From contig JABIGQ010000039.1 in NCBI GenBank assembly GCA_018650085.1, positions 1-56,031 on the forward strand: a DNA stretch of 56,031 bases, written 5' to 3'. Source of the stretch: Candidatus Magasanikiibacteriota bacterium (GTDB taxonomy: Bacteria; Patescibacteriota; Patescibacteriia; Magasanikbacterales; UBA922). A program made the position numbers and the translations under genes. Below, in pieces: positions 44,224 through 55,903 of this stretch (position 1 is its first letter; each line of letters starts with the position of its first letter). The notes under the pieces were generated by a model. It saw nothing but the letters and a program-made list of their open reading frames with translations. It ran no database searches and was not told the origin of the DNA.

Positions 44224-45141
44224 TTGTCATACGAAGATACTCGAGAGTTTTTAATCAATCATCAAGAAAAGATACTTGATGATTTTCTAGATGGACAGTG
44301 GTGTAAAATGACCACAGGCTTTAGCCAATCTGCTTATACAGATTCACTACGTCAGGCTGACTATTTATTGCGTTACTATGGAATGTATTTTACATCTTAT
44401 TATGCAACATATAGAAGATTCTTAAGAAAGTATGAAGCAATATTTTCTCAGAAACGCCTGCATATCCTATCTATTGGGACAGGATCTGGTATTGATTTTT
44501 TTGCACTTAACCGTGCTATTGAAGATCTTCTCTTAGAAAATAAAATTAAAAGAAGACAACAATATCATTATACAGGAATTGATCCTGTAGCGTGGAATTA
44601 CCAGCCTATATCTACAAAATTTCATTTCAAACAAATAGATATTAAGAAACTTACTCCACAAGATATTGAAAATGTAGATCTCTTTATATTTCCTAGATCT
44701 TTATCCGATATAGAAAGAACAGATCCTTTATCTTTAACTCGTTTAGCACGTTTAGTTTCTAATCACACTAATCGAGATAGACTATTCTTTATAAACTCAT
44801 ATGTTGTACAGAACAGTCTTGATAAAGGGAAAAAAGTATTCGGAGTAAATGCTTTTTGTTCTCTTATAAAATCTTTTACTCAACATGGATGGAGAAATGT
44901 GAATTGCAAACCACAGGATCATTGTGGAATTATTCCAAAATATTCTACTCTTTCAGATCTACCGTTCTATGGTATACCTGATCGACTCACTGATATCCTT
45001 GGAATAAACTTAAAAGATGAATGTAAACACAAAAAACAAGGGGCTTTCTCTTGTAATTTTTGTAAAGAACAACTTTATATTATGAGAAAACTAAACAACA
45101 TAGCTTTCCATATTCATGAACTACAGCGAGATGAAGAATGA
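44224..45141 (+). CDS. SAM-dependent methyltransferase-like protein (class I fold), Cys-rich C-terminus
   Basis: 305 aa, TTG start with a strong SD. LHILSIGTGSGIDFFAL resembles methyltransferase motif I, and YTGIDPV the acidic end of strand 2. The C-terminus has CKPQDHC...ECKHK...CNFC. No DPPY/NPPY motif. Confidence 0.45.
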   Translation: MSYEDTREFLINHQEKILDDFLDGQWCKMTTGFSQSAYTDSLRQADYLLRYYGMYFTSYYATYRRFLRKYEAIFSQKRLHILSIGTGSGIDFFALNRAIEDLLLENKIKRRQQYHYTGIDPVAWNYQPISTKFHFKQIDIKKLTPQDIENVDLFIFPRSLSDIERTDPLSLTRLARLVSNHTNRDRLFFINSYVVQNSLDKGKKVFGVNAFCSLIKSFTQHGWRNVNCKPQDHCGIIPKYSTLSDLPFYGIPDRLTDILGINLKDECKHKKQGAFSCNFCKEQLYIMRKLNNIAFHIHELQRDEE

Positions 45142-46076
45142 TCATCAGCGCTAGCCGACGAACTGATATCCCTGCATTTTATGCTCCATGGTTTATAAAC
45201 CGAGTTCGTGCGGGATGTTTACTAACTCGAAACCCACGAAATGCAAATCAAGTACGACGAGTTTCTTTATATCCAGAAGACGTAGATGTTATTGTTTTCT
45301 GGACAAGAAATCCTCGCCCGCTCTTTCCTTTTTTGGCAGAGTTGGATTCGTTAGGATATAAGTACTACTTTCAGTACACCTTAACAGGATATCCTAGGAT
45401 ACTTGAACCACATGTACCCCAAACCAATAATGCTATTGAAGCCTTTTGTGATCTCAGTGATTACATTGGGCCTGATCGTATTATCTGGCGTTATGACCCT
45501 ATTCTCCTGTCAAACTATACAGGTCTAGACTATCATATCTCTACATTTCTAAAGCTTGCTACACAACTTGCTGGAAAAACTAGAAAAGTAGTGATTAGTT
45601 TTGCAGACCTTTATGGAAAGACAATTAGAAATCTAGACAAAGTTTCTGGTATCCAATATATGGATATACGTAAAACTCCAGGTCTTTTACATCTACTGTC
45701 AAACATAATCAGAATTGCAAAGTCGTTTGGTATGACCGTGGAAACATGTGCAGAAACATCTGTTTCCTCAAGCCTATCAATGACTAGAGGAAAGTGCATT
45801 GATGATGCACTTATCCAACGCGTATTTGGAATAAACCTCACAGTAAAAAAAGACCGAAGTCAAAGAAAAGCTTGTGGCTGTGTAGAAAGTGTTGATATTG
45901 GGCAATATAATACCTGCCTTCATGGATGCACATACTGCTATGCAACAACAAGCCTAGATGCTGTCCAAAAAAAAAGACAACAGCACAACCCAGATAGTCC
46001 CTTTCTTATTGGGGACTTACGGGAAGGAGAAGAAATGTTTTTATTAACTAAAAAGAAGCAAATGCCTCTCTTATAG
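45138..46076 (+). CDS. DUF1848 family protein (C-terminal Cys cluster, putative Fe-S)
   Basis: 312 aa. MIISASRRTDIPAFYAPWF N-terminus and C-terminal QRKACGCVESVDIGQYNTCLHGCTYCYA, as I recall for DUF1848. Its start overlaps the upstream stop (ATGA). Confidence 0.65.
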   Translation: MIISASRRTDIPAFYAPWFINRVRAGCLLTRNPRNANQVRRVSLYPEDVDVIVFWTRNPRPLFPFLAELDSLGYKYYFQYTLTGYPRILEPHVPQTNNAIEAFCDLSDYIGPDRIIWRYDPILLSNYTGLDYHISTFLKLATQLAGKTRKVVISFADLYGKTIRNLDKVSGIQYMDIRKTPGLLHLLSNIIRIAKSFGMTVETCAETSVSSSLSMTRGKCIDDALIQRVFGINLTVKKDRSQRKACGCVESVDIGQYNTCLHGCTYCYATTSLDAVQKKRQQHNPDSPFLIGDLREGEEMFLLTKKKQMPLL

Positions 46077-46294: not shown

Positions 46295-46852
46295 CTAAAT
46301 CTTATAATCCTTAACAAACTGAGGTTTCGCCATTATCTTTTTACATTTAGGACATTCTGTCATTTCGTTTATGGTCTTATCTTCCCAAGCATCAAAACAA
46401 AGTGGACATTCATACCAAGTTTTTTCTTCATCTAATACTTTTGTTACGTCTTTAAAGATTGGATTATAGTATTCTATGTCCATTAAGTGTTTGTATTTTA
46501 GGAAGATTTTTTGATACTTTTTACTTAATTCTTCGTCTTCTCCATCTGTCATGTTCCAAAGAAAAAAATCATCTGTGAAGTATTCTTGGAAACAGTACTC
46601 TGCTATTTTTTTCACACACCCATCATCATCAATATGTTTTTGCAAATTAAATACAAAATGTCTAGAAATACGATTATCTAAAATATTATATCTATTCATA
46701 TCTACACTCAAAGCACTAGTAGGTGCAATATCAGAAATAAGTAAACGCACTTGATCAATATCAATACTATGATCAACATAAAGATAATTTTCTATACCGT
46801 ACACAACAAAAAACTCCTTTAGGTTTTTATCTGTTTTTCTCCCAATAAACAT
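46295..46852 (-). CDS. hypothetical protein with C-terminal zinc ribbon (CPLC...CPKC)
   Basis: 185-aa ORF, the last gene of the minus-strand string that begins with the RHS toxin. No family recognised. Confidence 0.45.
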   Translation of the reverse strand: MFIGRKTDKNLKEFFVVYGIENYLYVDHSIDIDQVRLLISDIAPTSALSVDMNRYNILDNRISRHFVFNLQKHIDDDGCVKKIAEYCFQEYFTDDFFLWNMTDGEDEELSKKYQKIFLKYKHLMDIEYYNPIFKDVTKVLDEEKTWYECPLCFDAWEDKTINEMTECPKCKKIMAKPQFVKDYKI

Positions 46853-47028
46853 ATAATTAAAATTTAAAACCTGTCTTTCCTAATAAAATGATCTCATTTG
46901 TAATCTTATCTATTACCAAAGACTTTCCACTATTTGGATCAATAATTCTCAATATTTCATTACCTAGATTTAAATAATTAATCCCTTTATGTATCAAGCG
47001 TATACCATTATTAATGGTATTATTTTTT

Positions 47029-47379
47029 TCATTCTTTAAAAGCTTCTACAACAATATTGAATGCATCTAAAGATTTACCTACTAAATATTTTTGTGCAAT
47101 ACTAATTCCATCCTCAGAATCACTAAGTAACTCAAATGTACCTGTCATAACCAGATCATAAGCAGAACTATCACCACTATTTATTAAAGAATCTAACAAG
47201 TCAAAGCAAGACTTCAAAAGTATTTCATCTTTTTTATCAGCTAATTCTTTTATATACGTAGCTAATGCCCCAAAAACCATATATGGCAAATCTATATCCT
47301 CATCGGTATTCCGTGCATACATTTCAAATTCCGGGATAATTTTAAATAATTTTTTAACTATATTTTGATTAGTCATCAT
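47029..47379 (-). CDS. candidate cognate immunity protein of the RHS toxin
   Basis: 116 aa, acidic, predicted helical. Its ATG lies 4 nt after the RHS stop codon, which is the canonical toxin-immunity placement. Confidence 0.55.
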   Translation of the reverse strand: MMTNQNIVKKLFKIIPEFEMYARNTDEDIDLPYMVFGALATYIKELADKKDEILLKSCFDLLDSLINSGDSSAYDLVMTGTFELLSDSEDGISIAQKYLVGKSLDAFNIVVEAFKE

Positions 47380-47383
47380 ACTA

Positions 47384-50300
47384 TTAATTTAATGCATTTA
47401 ATAAATCATTCAATAATTCTTGAGCTATAGATCTATCTGAAACAGATATATTCTCCCTCCCTAAAAATTTTCTCAATGCATTCACTGAATCTTGTCCTTT
47501 TTGTATATGATTACTACCACCTATTAATTCTCCTGTTATTTTCGTATGACGTATTGCATCAGCAGTTCCTCCGTCTCCATACTTTGCAGAACTCCTATAA
47601 TTCCTTTCAATTATACTTCGCAACTTTTGGTGCTGTACTTTTGATAAAAGATTCCCTCTTCTCGTATTCAATAATTTAATATTTGGGTCAACCCTTCTAA
47701 AATCATTAATATCTACATCTAACCCTCTTACTACACTGCCACGAAGAGATCTAGTAGGAACAAAAGGTAATTCACCTCCCATTAAAAATAACATTGCATC
47801 TAATTCCGTAAACTCATCCCCAGAAAACAAATATCTTCCTGTAATAGCTCCATATGCTTCAGATATATCACCTGTTATTGGAAAAGAATCTAATAATACA
47901 TCATAACCTGAATCATACATATCTGAATTTATATACCTAGGTGTAGAATTCATAGATGTAGAATCTGAACCATATCCATAATCAAATCCATAAGAATAAT
48001 TTGCTAGATTAAAATCCTCCCCAATCATCCCCGTAGGATCCACATACTTCAAAGGATTATTCTTCACATACACATACCTATTTCTCGACAAGACATCTCC
48101 ATCTCTACCCATATAAGAGTCTCGTGAAATAAATCTTCCAGTCTTTGGATTGTAATACCTAGCATTATAATAATACAATTCACTCTCAAAATCCTGCTCT
48201 TGGTTAGTGAAAAGATAGTTTGTTGTTTGTGTCCCTTCATACCCTATTGTACCACCAAATGCGTCATATTCATACATTCCTACTATTTCTGAAGATTCAT
48301 CTGTTAGTAGTACTGTACTTCCTAATACATCTGTATGTATATATGTTATTTCATCCTCTGCATCAATCTCTGCAATCATTTCTATGCCGTAAATATTTGT
48401 TTTACTCACAACACCCGCACTATCTAGTTCATTAAGAACTCGAAGTCCATCATTAATATAATAACTCGCTTCATTATTTACGGATTTTTTTATCCTATTT
48501 CCATAGTCATCATACGCAAAACTTACTGTATTTTGACTAGCACTTGGAAGAAAATTTGGTCTGCTATTGTCTGTGTAACTAATCTGAGAAAGCCTGTTTT
48601 CTGCATCCCAAACATAATCTACCGTTTTAAGTGGATCCCCACCTCTAGTATACACTTCTTGCGTAAGACTTCCATTTCCATCATAAACATTTGATACTGC
48701 AAGTGTATTATTTACCGTATAACTTGCTAGTTCATTTGTATTGAGAGCGTAAGTGTAATTTGTCGTGTCTGTATTGTTTACATAAGTTGTCCTATTCCCC
48801 CACTTATCATACGTATACGTCTGATCCACTCCTGCCCCAATAATTGTATAATCTACTGTTTTGAGCTGGTCGAGCGTATCGTATGTATAATCTATTATTC
48901 TAGTATTATTTTCTACTACACGTGTCCTATTATGCTCTGCATCATACGTGTAGTCATGACTCCACACTGTTTCTGCTTGTGGATTTACTATTGTTTGTGT
49001 TTCTAATCGTTGCAAGTCATCATATACATAATTAGTTGTATAATTATTTGCATATGTTAAACTTGCTGGTTTCCCAAAACTAGTATAACCATACGTTGCC
49101 AAAGGCTGCCCAAGATAATTTACTGTTTGGAGAAATCCTCTATTGTTATACGTATATGTTATTGTTTTTCCAGAAGCATCAGTCAAGCTTGCTGGACTTG
49201 AGTCTGTGTTATATGTTCTTGTAATTATTTTTGAATTCTCAGGCAAATCTGAAAATCTTTGTACTTCCTGTGTTTGTCTATTGAGATCATCATACGTATA
49301 GTTAGTTGTCAGCTCTAACGTAACACTTTGCGTATTGTTCCCCCAATTGTCATAAATATATGTTGACTGTGTTTCATCTGAAAATGTTTTTGATACAATT
49401 TGTCCAAGCACATCATACACATATGTAATTGTACTATTTTCTCCATCTACTTTTGTAATAATATTCCCTTCTGCATCATACGTATAATGTTCTGTTTTAT
49501 TTCCTAAACTAGTTACTTGCGTCACTCTATTTAAATCATCATACAGAAAACTAGTCACATGCCCATCTACATTTTCAGACAATCTATTTCCATTATTATC
49601 ATAGGTATATATTGTTTGGGTTCCTTGTACATTGGTTTCACTTGTAAGCTGATCTAATTTATTATACACAAAACTAGTGCTATTTCCTTTTTTATCTATT
49701 CTACTAGTAATATTTCCATGCCCATCATAAACAAGAGTACTCGTATTATTATACGCATCTATTGTATCTGTTTTTCTATGTCCTGTATCATAGATATAAT
49801 CTACGGTTGTATTATCTGCATAGGTAATTCCTGTTTGATTTCCTTGTGCATCATAGGTATATCTCGTAATATTTCCTCCATTATCTTCTTCTGAAATAAG
49901 TCTATTAAATTCATCATAGATATATGTAGTAACCCTGCTTTCTTTATCTGTAACTGTCAAAACATTACCCAGGGCATCATAAGTATAGCTAATACTATTA
50001 CCATAAGCATCTGTTTCTGTTAGCTTTCTTCCTAATTTGTCATAAGTATAACTCACTGTATGAGTATTGTTTAAACCATCTGCCGATTGACGGTCTATCA
50101 TATTTGTCAAATCACCACGTGCATTATATGTAAAAATACTTTCTGTATCATCTGCATAACGAATACGGATTCGTCGCCCTGCTTCATCATAGTCATATGT
50201 TATCGTATTTCCATCACTATTACATAATCCTACATCCATCAAACAACGATCTTGTTTTTCACCAACTCTATTCCCTATTGCGTCATACACATATTCTATA

Positions 50301-53300
50301 TGATGGCCCACTTCATTTTCTTCTTCAACTAATTGGTTATTTGCATTGTATTCAAATACAGTCCTATTCCCATTTGGATCTATTACTCGTATTTGATTTC
50401 CAAAACCATCATACACATATTGTATTGATACAAAATCAATAGCAGTAGAATATGCACGTTCTTCCATTATCTGATTTCGTGCATCATAGATATATACTTT
50501 TTTTCTTCCTTCTATATCTGTTTCTTCTTTGAGGTTTCCTTTTGCATCATAAATATAATCTATTGTCAAAACAGGTGTTATTTTTTGACTGATTCTTCCA
50601 TTATCATCATAGACATAACTTATTTCATTACCATTCGCATCTGTTTCGGTTACTAATCTTCCAAGGTTATCATAATCTTTACTTGTCACAATATCTGCTT
50701 GTGTAAGACCAATTTGTTTTGTCTCAAGCAAACTTGCAGATATATCTGTTGCATATACAAATTCTGTACGTTGATTATTTTCATTTACCCTTGCTGTTCT
50801 GTGTCCTTCTATATCATATTCATATGTTTTTATTCCTCCGAGTGGATTTGTTTCGGTAAGAATATTGTTTTGATTGTCATATGTGTAAGTATATACTTCT
50901 CCCATTGGGTCAGTATAAGTTTCTCTATTTCCAAAGACATCATAAGTATATGTTTTTGTTATAGTTTCTTGTTGATTATCTGCATCTGTTACTGTTTTAC
51001 TTTCTGTTAATCTATAATTTCCATTTACATCGTATGTGTAGGTTATAATGTTACTATTCTTATCTGTGTGAGTAAGTATATTCCCATATTGGTCATAAGT
51101 ATAGCTTTCTGTATTCCCCATTGGGTCAATTACAGATAAAATATTCCCATCTGTTGGGTCTATAGTATAGCTTGTTACTTTCTCATCATAAAGTTCTGCT
51201 TGGACTACCCCGTCTATGATTTCATATACTTGTTCTCGTTTTTCTTGGATTCTATTGAAAGCTCCATAAGTATATGTTATTTTTGTTCTCCAGTTTTCTG
51301 TATTTGGTAATATTGTGCTTACAACTCTTCTATCTGTATCATAAGTATATCCTGTTGTTTTATTGTTTTGGTCTGTTTTGGATATCACCATTCCTTCTGC
51401 ATTTCTTGTTTGGGTTATAGTATTTCCATCGGTATCAAATTGAGCAACTTTTAAATGTTTGTCACTATAACAATATTTCTCTAATGTAAAATTGACTTCA
51501 TCACTATAATTTTTTACAAGTGTACAATAACTATCTCCTGTAACAGCAGGATCTTCTCCTAGATACGCCAATGTCCAAACCAAGCGTTTTTCTCCTACTT
51601 GATCTTTATCTGAATTATATTCATGCTGAACTGTCGTACGCCCTTCTGCATCATATGTATTATATAAAATAGTTCCACGAGCATCAGTATATGTATATAA
51701 TCTATATACATCAGTATCTACATATTTTGCATAAGTAAAACTATCTGTTTTTATTGTTGTTACTCCATCTGTTATAATTGTTTTTCTTACTTCTTTGAGT
51801 ACTGGGATTTCTGAATCTAATGTTTCATAGATATAATCAATTGTTGCACTATTATTTGGGTCTCCTGAATTATATGTAACTTTTGTTACTTTATCCCAAC
51901 GTTTATCATCAGTAATTTCTCCATAGGTAAATGTTATTTCTCGCCCAGAAGAATCTACTACTTGGGTAAGCATATCTACATTTCTTTTTTCTGTATAATT
52001 GAATATTGTCGCATTAGCATTGGTATCTTCAATCCTCTCAAGCAAGCCCATATTGTCTGTGAGCTTTAGAGAATAATAATATTTCATTCCTGATAACTTT
52101 TCTAAAATAAGAAATGTTTCTGTTGCATCATTATATAATTTGTCTGTCTGTCCTGCTGATACATATTTTCCATCAACCATTTCAAATATATTTGCTACTG
52201 TTCCCCCTTTGTATACCACAACTTTTCCGCTTGTTGGGTCTTTATAATAATATTGATTATATGAATATTTCCATCCCAATCCAAAACGAGCATTTTTTAT
52301 AGTTTTACTATTATAATATCTGGTTAAATCTATTGATTCTCCACGACCTGACAATTGTAGGTCTGTCTGTGTTAGTTCAAATGATCCTGTTCTGGCATCT
52401 ACTGGATCTGCTACTGGAGTCATTTCTCCATTTGAATTCTCTTGACTTTGGCTATCGTCTGTTGGATTTACATCAACAATTCCCTCTGTAGTTCCTCCTA
52501 GTCCTTCTTCTAACTCTACTATTCCATCCCCATCATTATCTGCTGTGGTGTGTGTTGGATTAGAAGAACCTGAACCACTTTGAGGAGATTTAGTAGTAAA
52601 ATACCATTGGCTACTAGGAAAATATCCTTCTGCTCCATCATTATCCCGTGCTTTTACTCGCCAATAATACCGTGTTCCATATGATAAATTACTCACACCA
52701 AATACAGAGTTATTATTCCCAATCCATTCTGAATAAAAATCTGTACCAGAAAAATACTGATCTGTACTTATTTCTACAAAATAATCTACAATTGATCCAT
52801 CTGGATCTGAACATCCCCAGTCAAGATTTAATGATAAATTTTGATTTGATGCAGTAATATTAGGGGAAACAATGGTACAACGACTTGGGACTTGATTAAT
52901 GTCTACTTCTATGTATGCTGTATTATTATCTTCATTTAATTCTATAATATTTTCATTATCATCTATCTGAAATAAAATATAGTTACTCCCTAAATAATCC
53001 AGACTTTCTGGCAATGGTAGAGGATTCGATACATCTATATATTCACCAGAAGCTAAAGAACTAATATTTCTTGAATTAAGCGGAAAATCATTATCATCAA
53101 CAACCGTATCTGTAGACAAATAATATTGTAATGTAAATAAATTATTTATATCTCCCCCGCTATTTCTTATACGCACACTCGCTGTCGGCACATCTCCAAC
53201 AATTAATGATACATCCTCAACACTTTGGTCTTCTAAAATTAAATCTGGCAAATCTTGTAAATTAAAATTTACAATTCTTGAAAAAAGAATATCATCCTCA

Positions 53301-55903
53301 TTATAATCATCATTTTGGGCAATCTCTACTAAATCACTATCATATAAATGCATATATGTATCTGGCTCCCCATTTGTAGGACCCGATGTTTGAATCGTCA
53401 CAACACTGCCTGAACGAGAAAAAGATAAGTGATATGTTCCTATTTCTGTATCCCTATAACCTCGTACTTTAATATAATAATTTTTTCCATCATATATAAA
53501 ACGATACCAATCTTCATCTGCTTCTGTAAGATATGAATTATTACGTGTATAACTTGTACTAGAACCAAGATATTCAGCAGAGCCACTTGAATCATTTGGT
53601 TCATATGGATCTAAAATCGGTTCACTAATAGTAACCTCTTCATAGACAACATTATTTTCTTCATTTGACTCCCCTACAACCCCAGCTTTATCTGCACGAA
53701 ATAAAATATAATATGTTCCTGGCCCATTATATGTTGAATCTGCTGCTAAAAAATTTTCAGAAAATGTTATATTTGTATATTCATCATTATAACCTTGAGA
53801 AGACAAAGCATCTACACTATCTGATGCAATAAGATAATCCAATTGATCCCATTGAGTATCTCGAGATAAATAATAGCCCACAGAGGATGCACCACTATCA
53901 TCACTTCCTTGATTAAGAATACGTACATCCAATCGTACTGCGTCTCCTACAGTAATAGCATCATCACTCACATCTCTTGTACTTGGAATCAAATCAATAT
54001 TAGTTTCTGTAAGAAGTACTCTAATATATGGGGCATAATCACCAGCTTCCTCTTGAGCATTAAATACTAATAACCTATCTTTCCAACTTGCAGGAGGAGT
54101 ATTTCCTGATGACCATTCTTCACTAGGCTCTAACAGTACTCCCCAATTTATTTCTCCTCCCTTCCATTGTCTCACTGAATTTGTTATGTCAAAACTTACC
54201 CATCTTTGTGTCTCAGAACTATCGAATGTATCTATTGATTCATTTTCTTTTTCCAAGTGTTCACGAAAATATGGATAAGATAATGATGAAATATTATATG
54301 GCGGCCATGCTTTTGTAACCCGCTTTGCTTCTAAATTAACAACTTGATCACTCCCCTCACCAAAATTGTGATAATACATTTTTAATTGTGCATTATCCAC
54401 ATCTCCTGGAAGATTCATATAATCAGCAGCTGCAGCGACTATAAGATGCCGAGTATAATCATTTACTCCATTTACCAAGCGTCCAGTATATAATCTACCT
54501 TCAAACTCTTCTTCCGCAGAAGGATTTTGTGCCCCCCCATTTACCGCACGAAGATAAAAATCAAATTGATTACAATCCAAATAATATCTTCCACTATAAT
54601 TTTCTTTACATGGATAATATACAGGATCAATAATAACTGGATATACCCGTTCTTTTGCTGTTAAATATGAACCAGGAACTTCCAATCCAATTCTCATTTT
54701 TCTTAACTCATAATCTACTTCTACAATCTGATCCAATCCAATATGAGACAATTCACCATACATTGAAGTATCTTCTTGAGAATCAAACATAATTGCCCCA
54801 GTAATTCTTAACTCACTTTGATCTGGAAAAACAATTCTAACATTTTCATTATTCTGTAAAATTTGCGTACCCTTTATTCTATCTTCTCCTACCAAAACAT
54901 CACTCCCTTTGGGAAATTCATATTCTTCCCAAAACAAAAGTTTATCTTTTAAGGAAATATCTTCTGGCTCTGATTGTATTATTATTTTCCTTTCTCTACT
55001 AAACGCTTTATCATGAAATAACACATCTACATTCGGATACATATTTTTAATTGTAGAAATAGATGTGTTATTTTCTTTTGTATAAGAAACAGTCCCTGAT
55101 ACGGGTTTTTTTATGTAGGAATTTTCATCAACTGAATCAACTTTTTCTAAATTTCCTGCACTAATAGCCACCGAATATCCTTCTTCTGACGTTGGTGTAT
55201 CATACTGATACCCAACATATTTTTCTACAGACTGAAACCTTGACTTATCCGCATCTTGAAATAAACTCCAATCTTTTGAACGAAGAAAAGTTTCACCATT
55301 TTTTTCATCAATTTGCACTGGTCTAGGTGTCTGATAAATATGCCATATTTGATCTCCATTTTCTTTATACGCAACATCACGCACACTATCTACTACATGG
55401 AACTCTAGATCTTCATTCAATTTTTCAACCTTTTCTTCCTCCACAAACAAACTCTTCACTGGTTCAATAATTTCTTCTGTAACAAAATCCACAACTTTAT
55501 CAAAAAAACTTTCTTCTTTAGTTAATTCTTTTGCTTCTTCCTCTTCTACAATAAAGTCAAGCGAATTTGCACCGCTAACTTCTTCAAGTGGCATGAGAAT
55601 TGCTTGCTCTGGTTTAATATCAGATACAGTCGTTGTTGTAAATATAGAAGATTCTTCAGATTGTACAACAACGTCCTCTTCTACTTCTACATCTGTAATA
55701 ATGCTTGTTTCTGTACTTGTCGGCACAGGCTCTACTAAATTTTCTATAGCAATATGTTCAATATCTACACTTTCTTCTTCTACAACAATAATATTATCCA
55801 CAGAAGTACTCGTGGAAATACTCTGCGCAAAAACAGACACAGTAGGGAATAAAGCAAAGTATATACTAAACACTATAAATGTATATTGTTTTATTTTTTT
55901 CAT
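47384..55903 (-). CDS. Sec-signal RHS/YD-repeat polymorphic toxin (2839 aa)
   Basis: Signal peptide MKKIKQYTFIVFSIYFALFPTVSVFAQS. RHS onset ADPVDARTGSFELTQTDLQL...RYYNS. Dozens of YD repeats (YTYDxxGN). Core end YYNARYYNPKTGRFISRDSY...NPLKYVDPTGM at 48026..48040. A 213-aa C-terminal extension follows. Confidence 0.9.
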   Translation of the reverse strand: MKKIKQYTFIVFSIYFALFPTVSVFAQSISTSTSVDNIIVVEEESVDIEHIAIENLVEPVPTSTETSIITDVEVEEDVVVQSEESSIFTTTTVSDIKPEQAILMPLEEVSGANSLDFIVEEEEAKELTKEESFFDKVVDFVTEEIIEPVKSLFVEEEKVEKLNEDLEFHVVDSVRDVAYKENGDQIWHIYQTPRPVQIDEKNGETFLRSKDWSLFQDADKSRFQSVEKYVGYQYDTPTSEEGYSVAISAGNLEKVDSVDENSYIKKPVSGTVSYTKENNTSISTIKNMYPNVDVLFHDKAFSRERKIIIQSEPEDISLKDKLLFWEEYEFPKGSDVLVGEDRIKGTQILQNNENVRIVFPDQSELRITGAIMFDSQEDTSMYGELSHIGLDQIVEVDYELRKMRIGLEVPGSYLTAKERVYPVIIDPVYYPCKENYSGRYYLDCNQFDFYLRAVNGGAQNPSAEEEFEGRLYTGRLVNGVNDYTRHLIVAAAADYMNLPGDVDNAQLKMYYHNFGEGSDQVVNLEAKRVTKAWPPYNISSLSYPYFREHLEKENESIDTFDSSETQRWVSFDITNSVRQWKGGEINWGVLLEPSEEWSSGNTPPASWKDRLLVFNAQEEAGDYAPYIRVLLTETNIDLIPSTRDVSDDAITVGDAVRLDVRILNQGSDDSGASSVGYYLSRDTQWDQLDYLIASDSVDALSSQGYNDEYTNITFSENFLAADSTYNGPGTYYILFRADKAGVVGESNEENNVVYEEVTISEPILDPYEPNDSSGSAEYLGSSTSYTRNNSYLTEADEDWYRFIYDGKNYYIKVRGYRDTEIGTYHLSFSRSGSVVTIQTSGPTNGEPDTYMHLYDSDLVEIAQNDDYNEDDILFSRIVNFNLQDLPDLILEDQSVEDVSLIVGDVPTASVRIRNSGGDINNLFTLQYYLSTDTVVDDNDFPLNSRNISSLASGEYIDVSNPLPLPESLDYLGSNYILFQIDDNENIIELNEDNNTAYIEVDINQVPSRCTIVSPNITASNQNLSLNLDWGCSDPDGSIVDYFVEISTDQYFSGTDFYSEWIGNNNSVFGVSNLSYGTRYYWRVKARDNDGAEGYFPSSQWYFTTKSPQSGSGSSNPTHTTADNDGDGIVELEEGLGGTTEGIVDVNPTDDSQSQENSNGEMTPVADPVDARTGSFELTQTDLQLSGRGESIDLTRYYNSKTIKNARFGLGWKYSYNQYYYKDPTSGKVVVYKGGTVANIFEMVDGKYVSAGQTDKLYNDATETFLILEKLSGMKYYYSLKLTDNMGLLERIEDTNANATIFNYTEKRNVDMLTQVVDSSGREITFTYGEITDDKRWDKVTKVTYNSGDPNNSATIDYIYETLDSEIPVLKEVRKTIITDGVTTIKTDSFTYAKYVDTDVYRLYTYTDARGTILYNTYDAEGRTTVQHEYNSDKDQVGEKRLVWTLAYLGEDPAVTGDSYCTLVKNYSDEVNFTLEKYCYSDKHLKVAQFDTDGNTITQTRNAEGMVISKTDQNNKTTGYTYDTDRRVVSTILPNTENWRTKITYTYGAFNRIQEKREQVYEIIDGVVQAELYDEKVTSYTIDPTDGNILSVIDPMGNTESYTYDQYGNILTHTDKNSNIITYTYDVNGNYRLTESKTVTDADNQQETITKTYTYDVFGNRETYTDPMGEVYTYTYDNQNNILTETNPLGGIKTYEYDIEGHRTARVNENNQRTEFVYATDISASLLETKQIGLTQADIVTSKDYDNLGRLVTETDANGNEISYVYDDNGRISQKITPVLTIDYIYDAKGNLKEETDIEGRKKVYIYDARNQIMEERAYSTAIDFVSIQYVYDGFGNQIRVIDPNGNRTVFEYNANNQLVEEENEVGHHIEYVYDAIGNRVGEKQDRCLMDVGLCNSDGNTITYDYDEAGRRIRIRYADDTESIFTYNARGDLTNMIDRQSADGLNNTHTVSYTYDKLGRKLTETDAYGNSISYTYDALGNVLTVTDKESRVTTYIYDEFNRLISEEDNGGNITRYTYDAQGNQTGITYADNTTVDYIYDTGHRKTDTIDAYNNTSTLVYDGHGNITSRIDKKGNSTSFVYNKLDQLTSETNVQGTQTIYTYDNNGNRLSENVDGHVTSFLYDDLNRVTQVTSLGNKTEHYTYDAEGNIITKVDGENSTITYVYDVLGQIVSKTFSDETQSTYIYDNWGNNTQSVTLELTTNYTYDDLNRQTQEVQRFSDLPENSKIITRTYNTDSSPASLTDASGKTITYTYNNRGFLQTVNYLGQPLATYGYTSFGKPASLTYANNYTTNYVYDDLQRLETQTIVNPQAETVWSHDYTYDAEHNRTRVVENNTRIIDYTYDTLDQLKTVDYTIIGAGVDQTYTYDKWGNRTTYVNNTDTTNYTYALNTNELASYTVNNTLAVSNVYDGNGSLTQEVYTRGGDPLKTVDYVWDAENRLSQISYTDNSRPNFLPSASQNTVSFAYDDYGNRIKKSVNNEASYYINDGLRVLNELDSAGVVSKTNIYGIEMIAEIDAEDEITYIHTDVLGSTVLLTDESSEIVGMYEYDAFGGTIGYEGTQTTNYLFTNQEQDFESELYYYNARYYNPKTGRFISRDSYMGRDGDVLSRNRYVYVKNNPLKYVDPTGMIGEDFNLANYSYGFDYGYGSDSTSMNSTPRYINSDMYDSGYDVLLDSFPITGDISEAYGAITGRYLFSGDEFTELDAMLFLMGGELPFVPTRSLRGSVVRGLDVDINDFRRVDPNIKLLNTRRGNLLSKVQHQKLRSIIERNYRSSAKYGDGGTADAIRHTKITGELIGGSNHIQKGQDSVNALRKFLGRENISVSDRSIAQELLNDLLNALN

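Follow-up and report, generated by a model that had tools for sequence, protein, structure and literature searches.

The window analysed here, that is, the whole stretch of 56,031 nucleotides of the public metagenome-assembled contig JABIGQ010000039.1 (Candidatus Magasanikiibacteriota bacterium, assembly GCA_018650085.1), carries on its minus strand a gene for a 2839-aa RHS/YD-repeat protein and, directly behind it, a short open reading frame (ORF) for an acidic protein. The subject of this report is the C-terminal domain of the former, hereafter the tip, and its pairing with the latter. The features of the locus, with the evidence for each in parentheses, are as follows:

47384..55903, minus strand: RHS/YD-repeat polymorphic toxin gene, 2839 aa (ORF, translation, Pfam)
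48029..48040, minus strand: DPTG, end of the RHS-associated core, NNPLKYVDPTG followed by M (sequence)
47912..48028, minus strand: low-complexity linker rich in Tyr, Gly, Ser and Asp, residues 2626–2664 (translation)
47798..47911, minus strand: PT-TG-like pre-toxin segment, residues 2665–2702, ...DSFPITGDISEAYGAITGRYLFSGDEF... (Pfam PF14449, sub-threshold)
47387..47671, minus strand: candidate toxin domain proper, residues ~2745–2839, ~95 aa, predicted to be mainly helical (profile search, conservation, AlphaFold2 (AF2))
47029..47379, minus strand: immunity candidate, 116 aa, isoelectric point (pI) 4.33, Pfam DUF7674 (PF24722) (Pfam, synteny, AF2)

The 2839-aa protein contains 22 RHS-repeat stretches (Pfam PF05593, E 9.1e-85) together with two CARDB domains, a DUF6531 domain and a weak fn3-like match, and its hydrophobic N-terminus, MKKIKQYTFIVFSIYFALFPTVSVFAQS (KD19 maximum 1.95), has the form of a typical Sec signal peptide. 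The RHS core closes with ...RYYNPKTGRFISRDSYMG...NNPLKYVDPTGM, in which NNPLKYVDPTGM (residues 2615–2626) follows the core-end pattern PxxxxDPxG(L/M) with a variable tail behind it; the Pfam RHS model PF03527 matched weakly at residues 2519–2551 (E 0.0026). By analogy with the cleavage of Rhs/Tc proteins, DPTG is presumed to be the autoproteolytic boundary at which the C-terminal tail is freed. This tail comprises 214 aa behind DPTG or 213 aa behind the following Met (residues 2627–2839), the latter being the length given by an earlier note made from the letters of this stretch. The same note located the cleavage motif VDPTGM at 48026..48040, a range that is right for the DPTGM codons (48040..48026) and leaves out the Val codon (48043..48041). 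Its Tyr/Gly/Ser-rich linker was found as described, with NLANYSYGFDYGYGSDSTSMNS... coming first in the tail, ahead of the PT-TG-like segment, and DSFPITGDISEAYGAITGRYLFSGDEFTELDA is also present, with a true span of about 47795..47890, the quoted range of 47786..47905 being slightly wide; as a whole, the positions given in the note are accurate to a few bases. The proposed PT-TG-like module could be aligned with Pfam PF14449 only below threshold (15.9 bits versus a gathering score of 23.5, E 0.013, 38 of 68 model positions), and TG motifs are present in the sequence. No relatives of the linker and PT-TG-like region were found by phmmer among the tip-family members. The gene ends with the stop codon TAA at 47386..47384, and no PAAR, VgrG or type VII secretion element was seen in the examined part of the window.

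The terminal domain of the window copy carries KYGDGGTADAIRHTKITGELIGGSNHIQKG, and the string KYGDGGTADAIRHTKITGELIGGSNHIQKGQDSVNALRKFL that had been quoted for it occurs in the translation. When the C-terminal tail was used in a word-indexed single-sequence search, only 3 matches were obtained, with the common pattern LYR...GDGGTADAIRHE..TGE....H..KG. A profile built from these 3 first relatives was then searched exhaustively against 1.84 billion cluster representatives (50% identity), yielding 2129 representatives at E<=1e-3 and 1262 at E<=1e-10. It took the exhaustive profile search to bring the family to light. The tip sat 0–3 residues from the C-terminus in 142 of ~155 matches, an exclusively C-terminal position that it holds on several scaffolds: the N-terminal modules of 58 longer members were RHS repeats, Rhs_assc_core (21/58), DUF637, PT-VENN, PAAR, PT-HINT and PT-TG (significant in 4/58), and VENN or DPxG motifs were found upstream of the tip in genome loci. 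Among 80 loci, the tip was on ORFs of >500 aa in 32 and on orphan-module-like ORFs of <=200 aa in 23. Members come from more than 10 phyla, with E. coli, Salmonella, Proteus and Bacteroides among the carriers, and a scan of one genome per species gave 115 relatives (Bacteroides/Phocaeicola, Eubacteriales, Cupriavidus, Ralstonia, Xanthomonas, Erwinia, Vibrio, Gilliamella, Acidobacteriota, Planctomycetota, Patescibacteria, Chloroflexota, Treponema and others).

In agreement with the earlier note, which could not place the domain in any named toxin family, the tip had no match in Pfam, NCBIfam, PADLOC, PHROGs or PDB sequences, either for the window copy or for 55–58 relatives. In none of the 58 full-length relatives did a Pfam or NCBIfam model extend over it, no recurring weak family appeared when 55 isolated tip domains were scanned at E<=5, and none of the named polymorphic toxin domains in Pfam/NCBIfam matched it (Ntox*, Tox-*, HNH/AHH/WHH, EndoU, colicin/BECR RNases, deaminases and ADP-ribosyltransferases (ARTs)). 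With PADLOC and PHROGs empty, there is no sign of a phage-defence or phage protein. The PDB sequence and profile matches were noise only (MOP23C, E 0.28; Mal d 1, E 0.046). Public labels of the tip carriers are 'hypothetical protein' or generic Rhs names, and our literature search found no paper on the tip family or on DUF7674. The C-terminal ~95 aa are a real, large and unnamed domain family. As a side observation, one member (P0106-type) also has an Ntox10 match, and others have peptidoglycan-binding or SH3 domains upstream of the tip, so that some carriers may be two-toxin or envelope-anchored proteins.

The acidic 116-aa ORF, which the earlier note had proposed as immunity candidate, starts with an ATG at 47379, separated from the toxin stop by a spacer of 4 nt (TAGT), and turned out to belong to an already assigned family, Pfam DUF7674 (PF24722; 43.9 bits versus a gathering score of 27, E 2.9e-11, model positions 2–96 of 111). 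The ORF begins ATGATG (47374..47379), and the public gene call (P0161) uses the second ATG, giving 115 aa and a gap of 7 nt. DUF7674 was also the gene after the toxin ORF in two metagenomic loci of the first relatives (L001 and L002). By a hidden Markov model built in this analysis, the ORF directly behind the tip was DUF7674-like in 76 of 79 loci, mostly with gaps of −4 to +5 nt, and by Pfam (E<=1e-3) DUF7674 stood there in 73 of the 80 loci made up of the window and 79 further ones; the same order was found in E. coli, Proteus and Kitasatospora. The toxin–immunity pairing put forward in the earlier note is supported by this synteny and by the position of the tip at the extreme C-terminus of several scaffolds. 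The two proteins are complementary in charge: the pI of the tip domain had a median of 9.44 (>8 in 54 of 70; window copy 10.46), and that of the immunity protein a median of 4.50 (<5.5 in 68 of 70). Neither of them showed a transmembrane-like or hydrophobic segment by hydropathy, and the immunity protein has no signal peptide. Judged by these sequence features, the combination of tip and DUF7674 is the standard signature of a polymorphic toxin predicted to act in the cytoplasm with a stoichiometric immunity protein. DUF7674, a family to which Pfam assigns no function judging by its name and the lack of papers, appears to be the cognate immunity partner of the tip.

The AF2 model of the immunity protein had seven helices and high confidence (predicted local distance difference test (pLDDT) 91.6, predicted TM-score (pTM) 0.85), in line with the helical character that had been claimed for it. 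The Foldseek comparison proposed in the earlier note gave no significant match for this model, only weak resemblances to armadillo, beta-catenin and 14-3-3 structures (E>=0.4). When its sequence profile was compared with designed armadillo-repeat proteins, E was 4.8e-8 for the whole sequence, with no single stretch passing alone. With moderate confidence, DUF7674 is predicted to be a short armadillo-like helical repeat.

Conservation in the tip was counted over 229 domains and is given here in window numbering. Y2769, G2776, G2778, H2799 and K2802 were invariant, and D2782 (98%), R2785 (97%), G2791 (96%), T2790 (95%) and T2780 (84%) were highly conserved. Of the conserved-looking D-x-I-R-H and S-N-H-x-Q-K singled out in the earlier note, the Asp and Arg of the former and the His and Lys of the latter thus stood, and the His of IRH, the SN and the Gln are variable; Y2769 and the two invariant Gly had not been flagged there. 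The position of T2787 (codon 47543..47545) is occupied by Glu in 96% of the domains and by Thr in ~1%, so that the window copy reads ADAIRHTK against ADAIRHEx in the family; the T-K variant was also found in the relatives P0002 and P0016, and could be the sign of a subclade whose activity is altered or weakened. In the AF2 model of the toxin domain (55 homologues; pLDDT 89.8, pTM 0.78), which consists of six helices, a loop at residues 36–45 of the modelled segment holds GDGG and leads into the helix at 46–56. In our view, a Gly-rich loop running into a helix N-terminus, combined with His, Lys, Arg, Tyr and an acidic residue, is typical of phosphate binding and phosphoryl transfer.

Rhs/YD polymorphic toxins with RhsI immunity proteins include the Sec-dependent WapA/WapI of Bacillus subtilis and the Rhs effectors of type VI secretion systems (T6SS). 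These systems are reviewed in PMC4436062 and PMC6730261. The window protein resembles them in its YD/RHS repeats, the core end ...DPxG, the variable tail and the immunity gene directly downstream, and with WapA it has in common an N-terminal signal peptide and the lack of a PAAR, being of the Sec-signal type rather than T6SS-linked. In contrast to the usual Rhs/YD toxins, CARDB and fn3 modules are added, and its tip falls in no named toxin family; WapA tips, by comparison, act as tRNases, and HNH, AHH, Ntox47, ART or similar domains make up many Rhs tips. Those family members that have DUF637 and PT-VENN upstream of the tip and the immunity gene directly downstream are similar to CdiA-CT/CdiI; unlike these, the window tip sits on an RHS scaffold with no CdiB/CdiA architecture. 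Overall, the module is an ordinary Rhs polymorphic toxin, in which only the tip family and the role for DUF7674 are new.

Small polymorphic-toxin tips with new folds that were discovered computationally are PT1–PT9 with PIM immunities (10.1101/2021.10.19.465003) and Tox1–Tox24 behind W10XG/PT-TG (PMC13483458); in the first set, PT1 and PT7 were found to be DNases of new topology. The window tip shares with both sets a short unannotated C-terminal domain, a conserved polar cluster and an adjacent acidic immunity gene for a cytoplasmic protein. Its model did not match the deposited PT1/PT7 structures in the PDB Foldseek search; the structural comparison covers PT1 and PT7 only, and identity with PT2–6, PT8–9 or Tox1–24 is possible. 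The motif string of the tip was absent from one supplement of the PT1–PT9 paper (10.1101/2021.10.19.465003).

We read the locus as a toxin–immunity module of a polymorphic toxin system in which the tip cleaves RNA without metal and DUF7674 blocks the tip, and we give this joint reading an even chance. The RHS protein would be exported by the Sec pathway through its N-terminal signal peptide and, as with other YD/RHS toxins that depend on Sec, would most likely be found on the cell surface. The C-terminal tail would be enclosed by its YD shell and set free by autoproteolysis at DPTG, and the last ~95 residues, predicted to be a compact, basic (pI 10.5) and helical domain, would be the toxic payload. 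In this domain, the GDGG loop would lead to the N-terminus of a helix with T-A-D-A-x-R-x-E, the invariant H-x-x-K would lie at the N-terminus of the next long helix, and the invariant Tyr precedes the loop; together these elements would constitute a putative single active site for phosphate binding and phosphoryl transfer inside the target cell's cytoplasm. In the cytoplasm of the producer, the co-translated acidic 116-aa DUF7674 protein, probably armadillo-like, would bind the basic toxin 1:1 and block it. Toxicity, neutralisation by binding, a cytoplasmic target and RNase chemistry are what we infer here. The most likely activity of the tip would be metal-independent cleavage of RNA (tRNA or rRNA), RNase-like action having been thought possible in the earlier note too. 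We rank it first at an even chance or slightly below it, with a nucleotide-directed enzyme second and rather unlikely, and with non-enzymatic action as improbable. RNase was placed ahead of other activities because of the small size and basic charge of the domain, its acidic cytoplasmic partner and the absence of an obvious metal-binding cluster, and a nuclease was favoured by analogy, because nuclease activity was found for PT1 and PT7, which are also newly found small tips whose folds are new and whose partners are acidic.

Several points weigh against this reading. In the literature, we found no activity for any member of the tip family. The Foldseek comparison of the tip, which the earlier note had called for and which was run on the confident AF2 model, detected nothing significant in PDB (best E 0.85) or in BFVD (best E 0.33), the matches being generic helical bundles with a TM-score <0.5, and no known nuclease was matched; ideas of a Fic/Doc, HEPN, colicin D or CdiA-CT helical tRNase relationship are therefore unsupported. 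The conserved residues suit several phosphoryl-transfer chemistries equally, and their assembly into a single active site is deduced from sequence conservation, not from positions in three dimensions. Secretion through Sec is likewise deduced from the signal peptide alone. Lastly, the Thr at position 2787 could mean that the activity of the window copy is weakened or its specificity shifted.

Two known folds were tried as candidates for the tip and rejected. For a HEPN RNase, the Rx4-6H motif is missing (R2785 and H2799 are 13 residues apart), and no HEPN structure was among the Foldseek matches listed. For Fic/Doc, neither HxFx(D/E)GNGRxxR nor HxFx(D/N)(A/G)NKR is present, and there was no Fic/Doc match in Foldseek and no match in Pfam.

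Among the other explanations, the one that survives best is that the tip is a cytoplasmic enzyme other than a nuclease, whose Gly-rich loop and helix N-terminus bind a nucleotide for subsequent depletion or transfer, as in an NAD(P)ase, in a (p)ppApp-type pyrophosphokinase, or in a Fic/Doc-like AMPylase or kinase whose substrate is an essential protein, e.g. EF-Tu. Anion-binding loop-to-helix elements of such kind occur in nucleotide-binding and Fic/Doc active sites, and the tip has the G-x-G-G-T-A-D-A-x-R loop-to-helix together with the invariant His/Lys and Tyr, is all-helical as Fic/Doc is, and is accompanied by a cytoplasmic immunity protein. However, ~95 aa would be very small for a nucleotide-using transferase, the Fic motif HxFx(D/E)GNGRxxR is absent, no Fic/Doc, ART, NADase or RelA/SpoT structure was among the Foldseek matches, and Pfam gave not even weak consistent matches. 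We regard this explanation as rather unlikely.

It is less probable still that the family is one of true toxins and the window allele is attenuated or inactive through IRHTK in place of IRHEx, the module being kept mainly via its immunity gene. The rarity of Thr at position 2787 speaks for it, as does the fact that function loss is known in the family, a common E. coli allele having an in-frame stop ahead of the tip and a retained immunity gene. On the other hand, the window copy retains every other invariant residue, its ORF is intact, and an identical toxin–immunity gene pair is found on further contigs; moreover, P0002 and P0016 are independent relatives, so that their T-K variant suggests a maintained subclade.

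That the tip is a non-enzymatic effector, blocking an essential target stoichiometrically or acting on the membrane or envelope, we consider very improbable. Its small size, helical nature and lack of a recognisable catalytic fold would suit such an effector, but the invariant polar Tyr, His, Lys, Asp, Arg and Glu across more than 10 phyla indicate catalysis, no amphipathic or transmembrane segment was found in the tip, and an immunity protein with neither signal peptide nor transmembrane segment disfavours a periplasmic or membrane target. Hardly credible is a non-toxin role in which the tip would be a structural plug or a secretion or adhesion element of the RHS shell with DUF7674 as its chaperone, because one and the same tip occurs behind unrelated scaffolds (RHS, CdiA/VENN, PAAR, HINT and PT-TG) and also on short orphan ORFs that still have a DUF7674 partner, which is the signature of a polymorphic toxin tip and not of a scaffold part.

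New enzymes and new ways of killing cells have come from polymorphic toxin tips time and again. We tentatively suggest, while considering it doubtful, that the tip is a new enzymatic toxin fold, with a mechanism or target that is new among polymorphic toxins, and that DUF7674 is an armadillo-like inhibitor dedicated to it. The tip could, for instance, be a new tRNA- or rRNA-specific RNase class, or a nucleotide-directed enzyme built on the Gly-loop/helix-cap phosphate site. Its users would be T6SS, contact-dependent inhibition (CDI), HINT/PT-TG-type and Sec-RHS systems, spread over more than 10 phyla and found in E. coli and Salmonella too. The tip is no rare oddity, with at least 2129 clusters at 50% identity on at least four delivery scaffolds, and it occurs in tractable organisms (E. 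coli, Proteus, Salmonella, Bacteroides and Cupriavidus). For a domain for which no Pfam or NCBIfam model, structure or paper was found, the pair with DUF7674 offers annotators a two-gene signature, and the link would give DUF7674 a concrete immunity role. The two proteins are small (95 and 116 aa), making the pair directly testable.

The surroundings of the module in the window contain the following further features:

46857..46997, minus strand: 46-aa ORF (…GNEILRIIDPNSGKSLVIDKITNEIILLGKTGFKF) downstream of the immunity gene, no family match
46295..46852, minus strand: 185-aa ORF with a CPLC…CPKC zinc-ribbon-like motif at its end, no family match
45138..46076, plus strand: DUF1848 gene (E 6e-101), convergent with the toxin locus (Pfam)
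44224..45141, plus strand: 305-aa ORF overlapping the DUF1848 gene, convergent with the toxin locus, no family

The 46-aa and 185-aa ORFs may represent an orphan toxin–immunity module in decay, or they may be unrelated genes; promoter-like matches were not above chance there, and no terminator-like site was found. The DUF1848 gene and the 305-aa ORF separate the toxin module from greA, lysS and serS, which are housekeeping genes. Downstream of the module, the scan met housekeeping genes and genes of unknown function (GreA, LysRS, SerRS, Mur ligase and DUF1848), and the upstream end of the RHS gene is at the window edge.

A VgrG-linked Rhs protein of 1501 aa in E. coli terminates in this tip, and such a VgrG-linked Rhs was found in 126 of 5426 complete genomes of that species. 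The E. coli tip takes up the last ~110 aa of WP_106888458, and its cognate DUF7674 protein is WP_001077738. The tip-bearing Rhs locus lies at yafV–ivy–fadE (L088:5788-6282, CP055055, compared with L091:6389-6883, E. coli 88-3493, in which the Rhs is intact). A common E. coli allele has an in-frame stop (Gln to stop) just ahead of the toxin domain, leaving a 92-aa ORF (P0235, 3242 indexed blocks) and a DUF7674-like gene, and looks like toxin loss with the immunity retained. In Proteus mirabilis NZ_OL790811 (L083:5869-6704), the tip is an unannotated 144-aa ORF followed by a 134-aa DUF7674 gene amid a run of short ORFs that looks like an orphan toxin–immunity array; this record is listed as a 4-Mb 'plasmid' and is evidently a chromosome.

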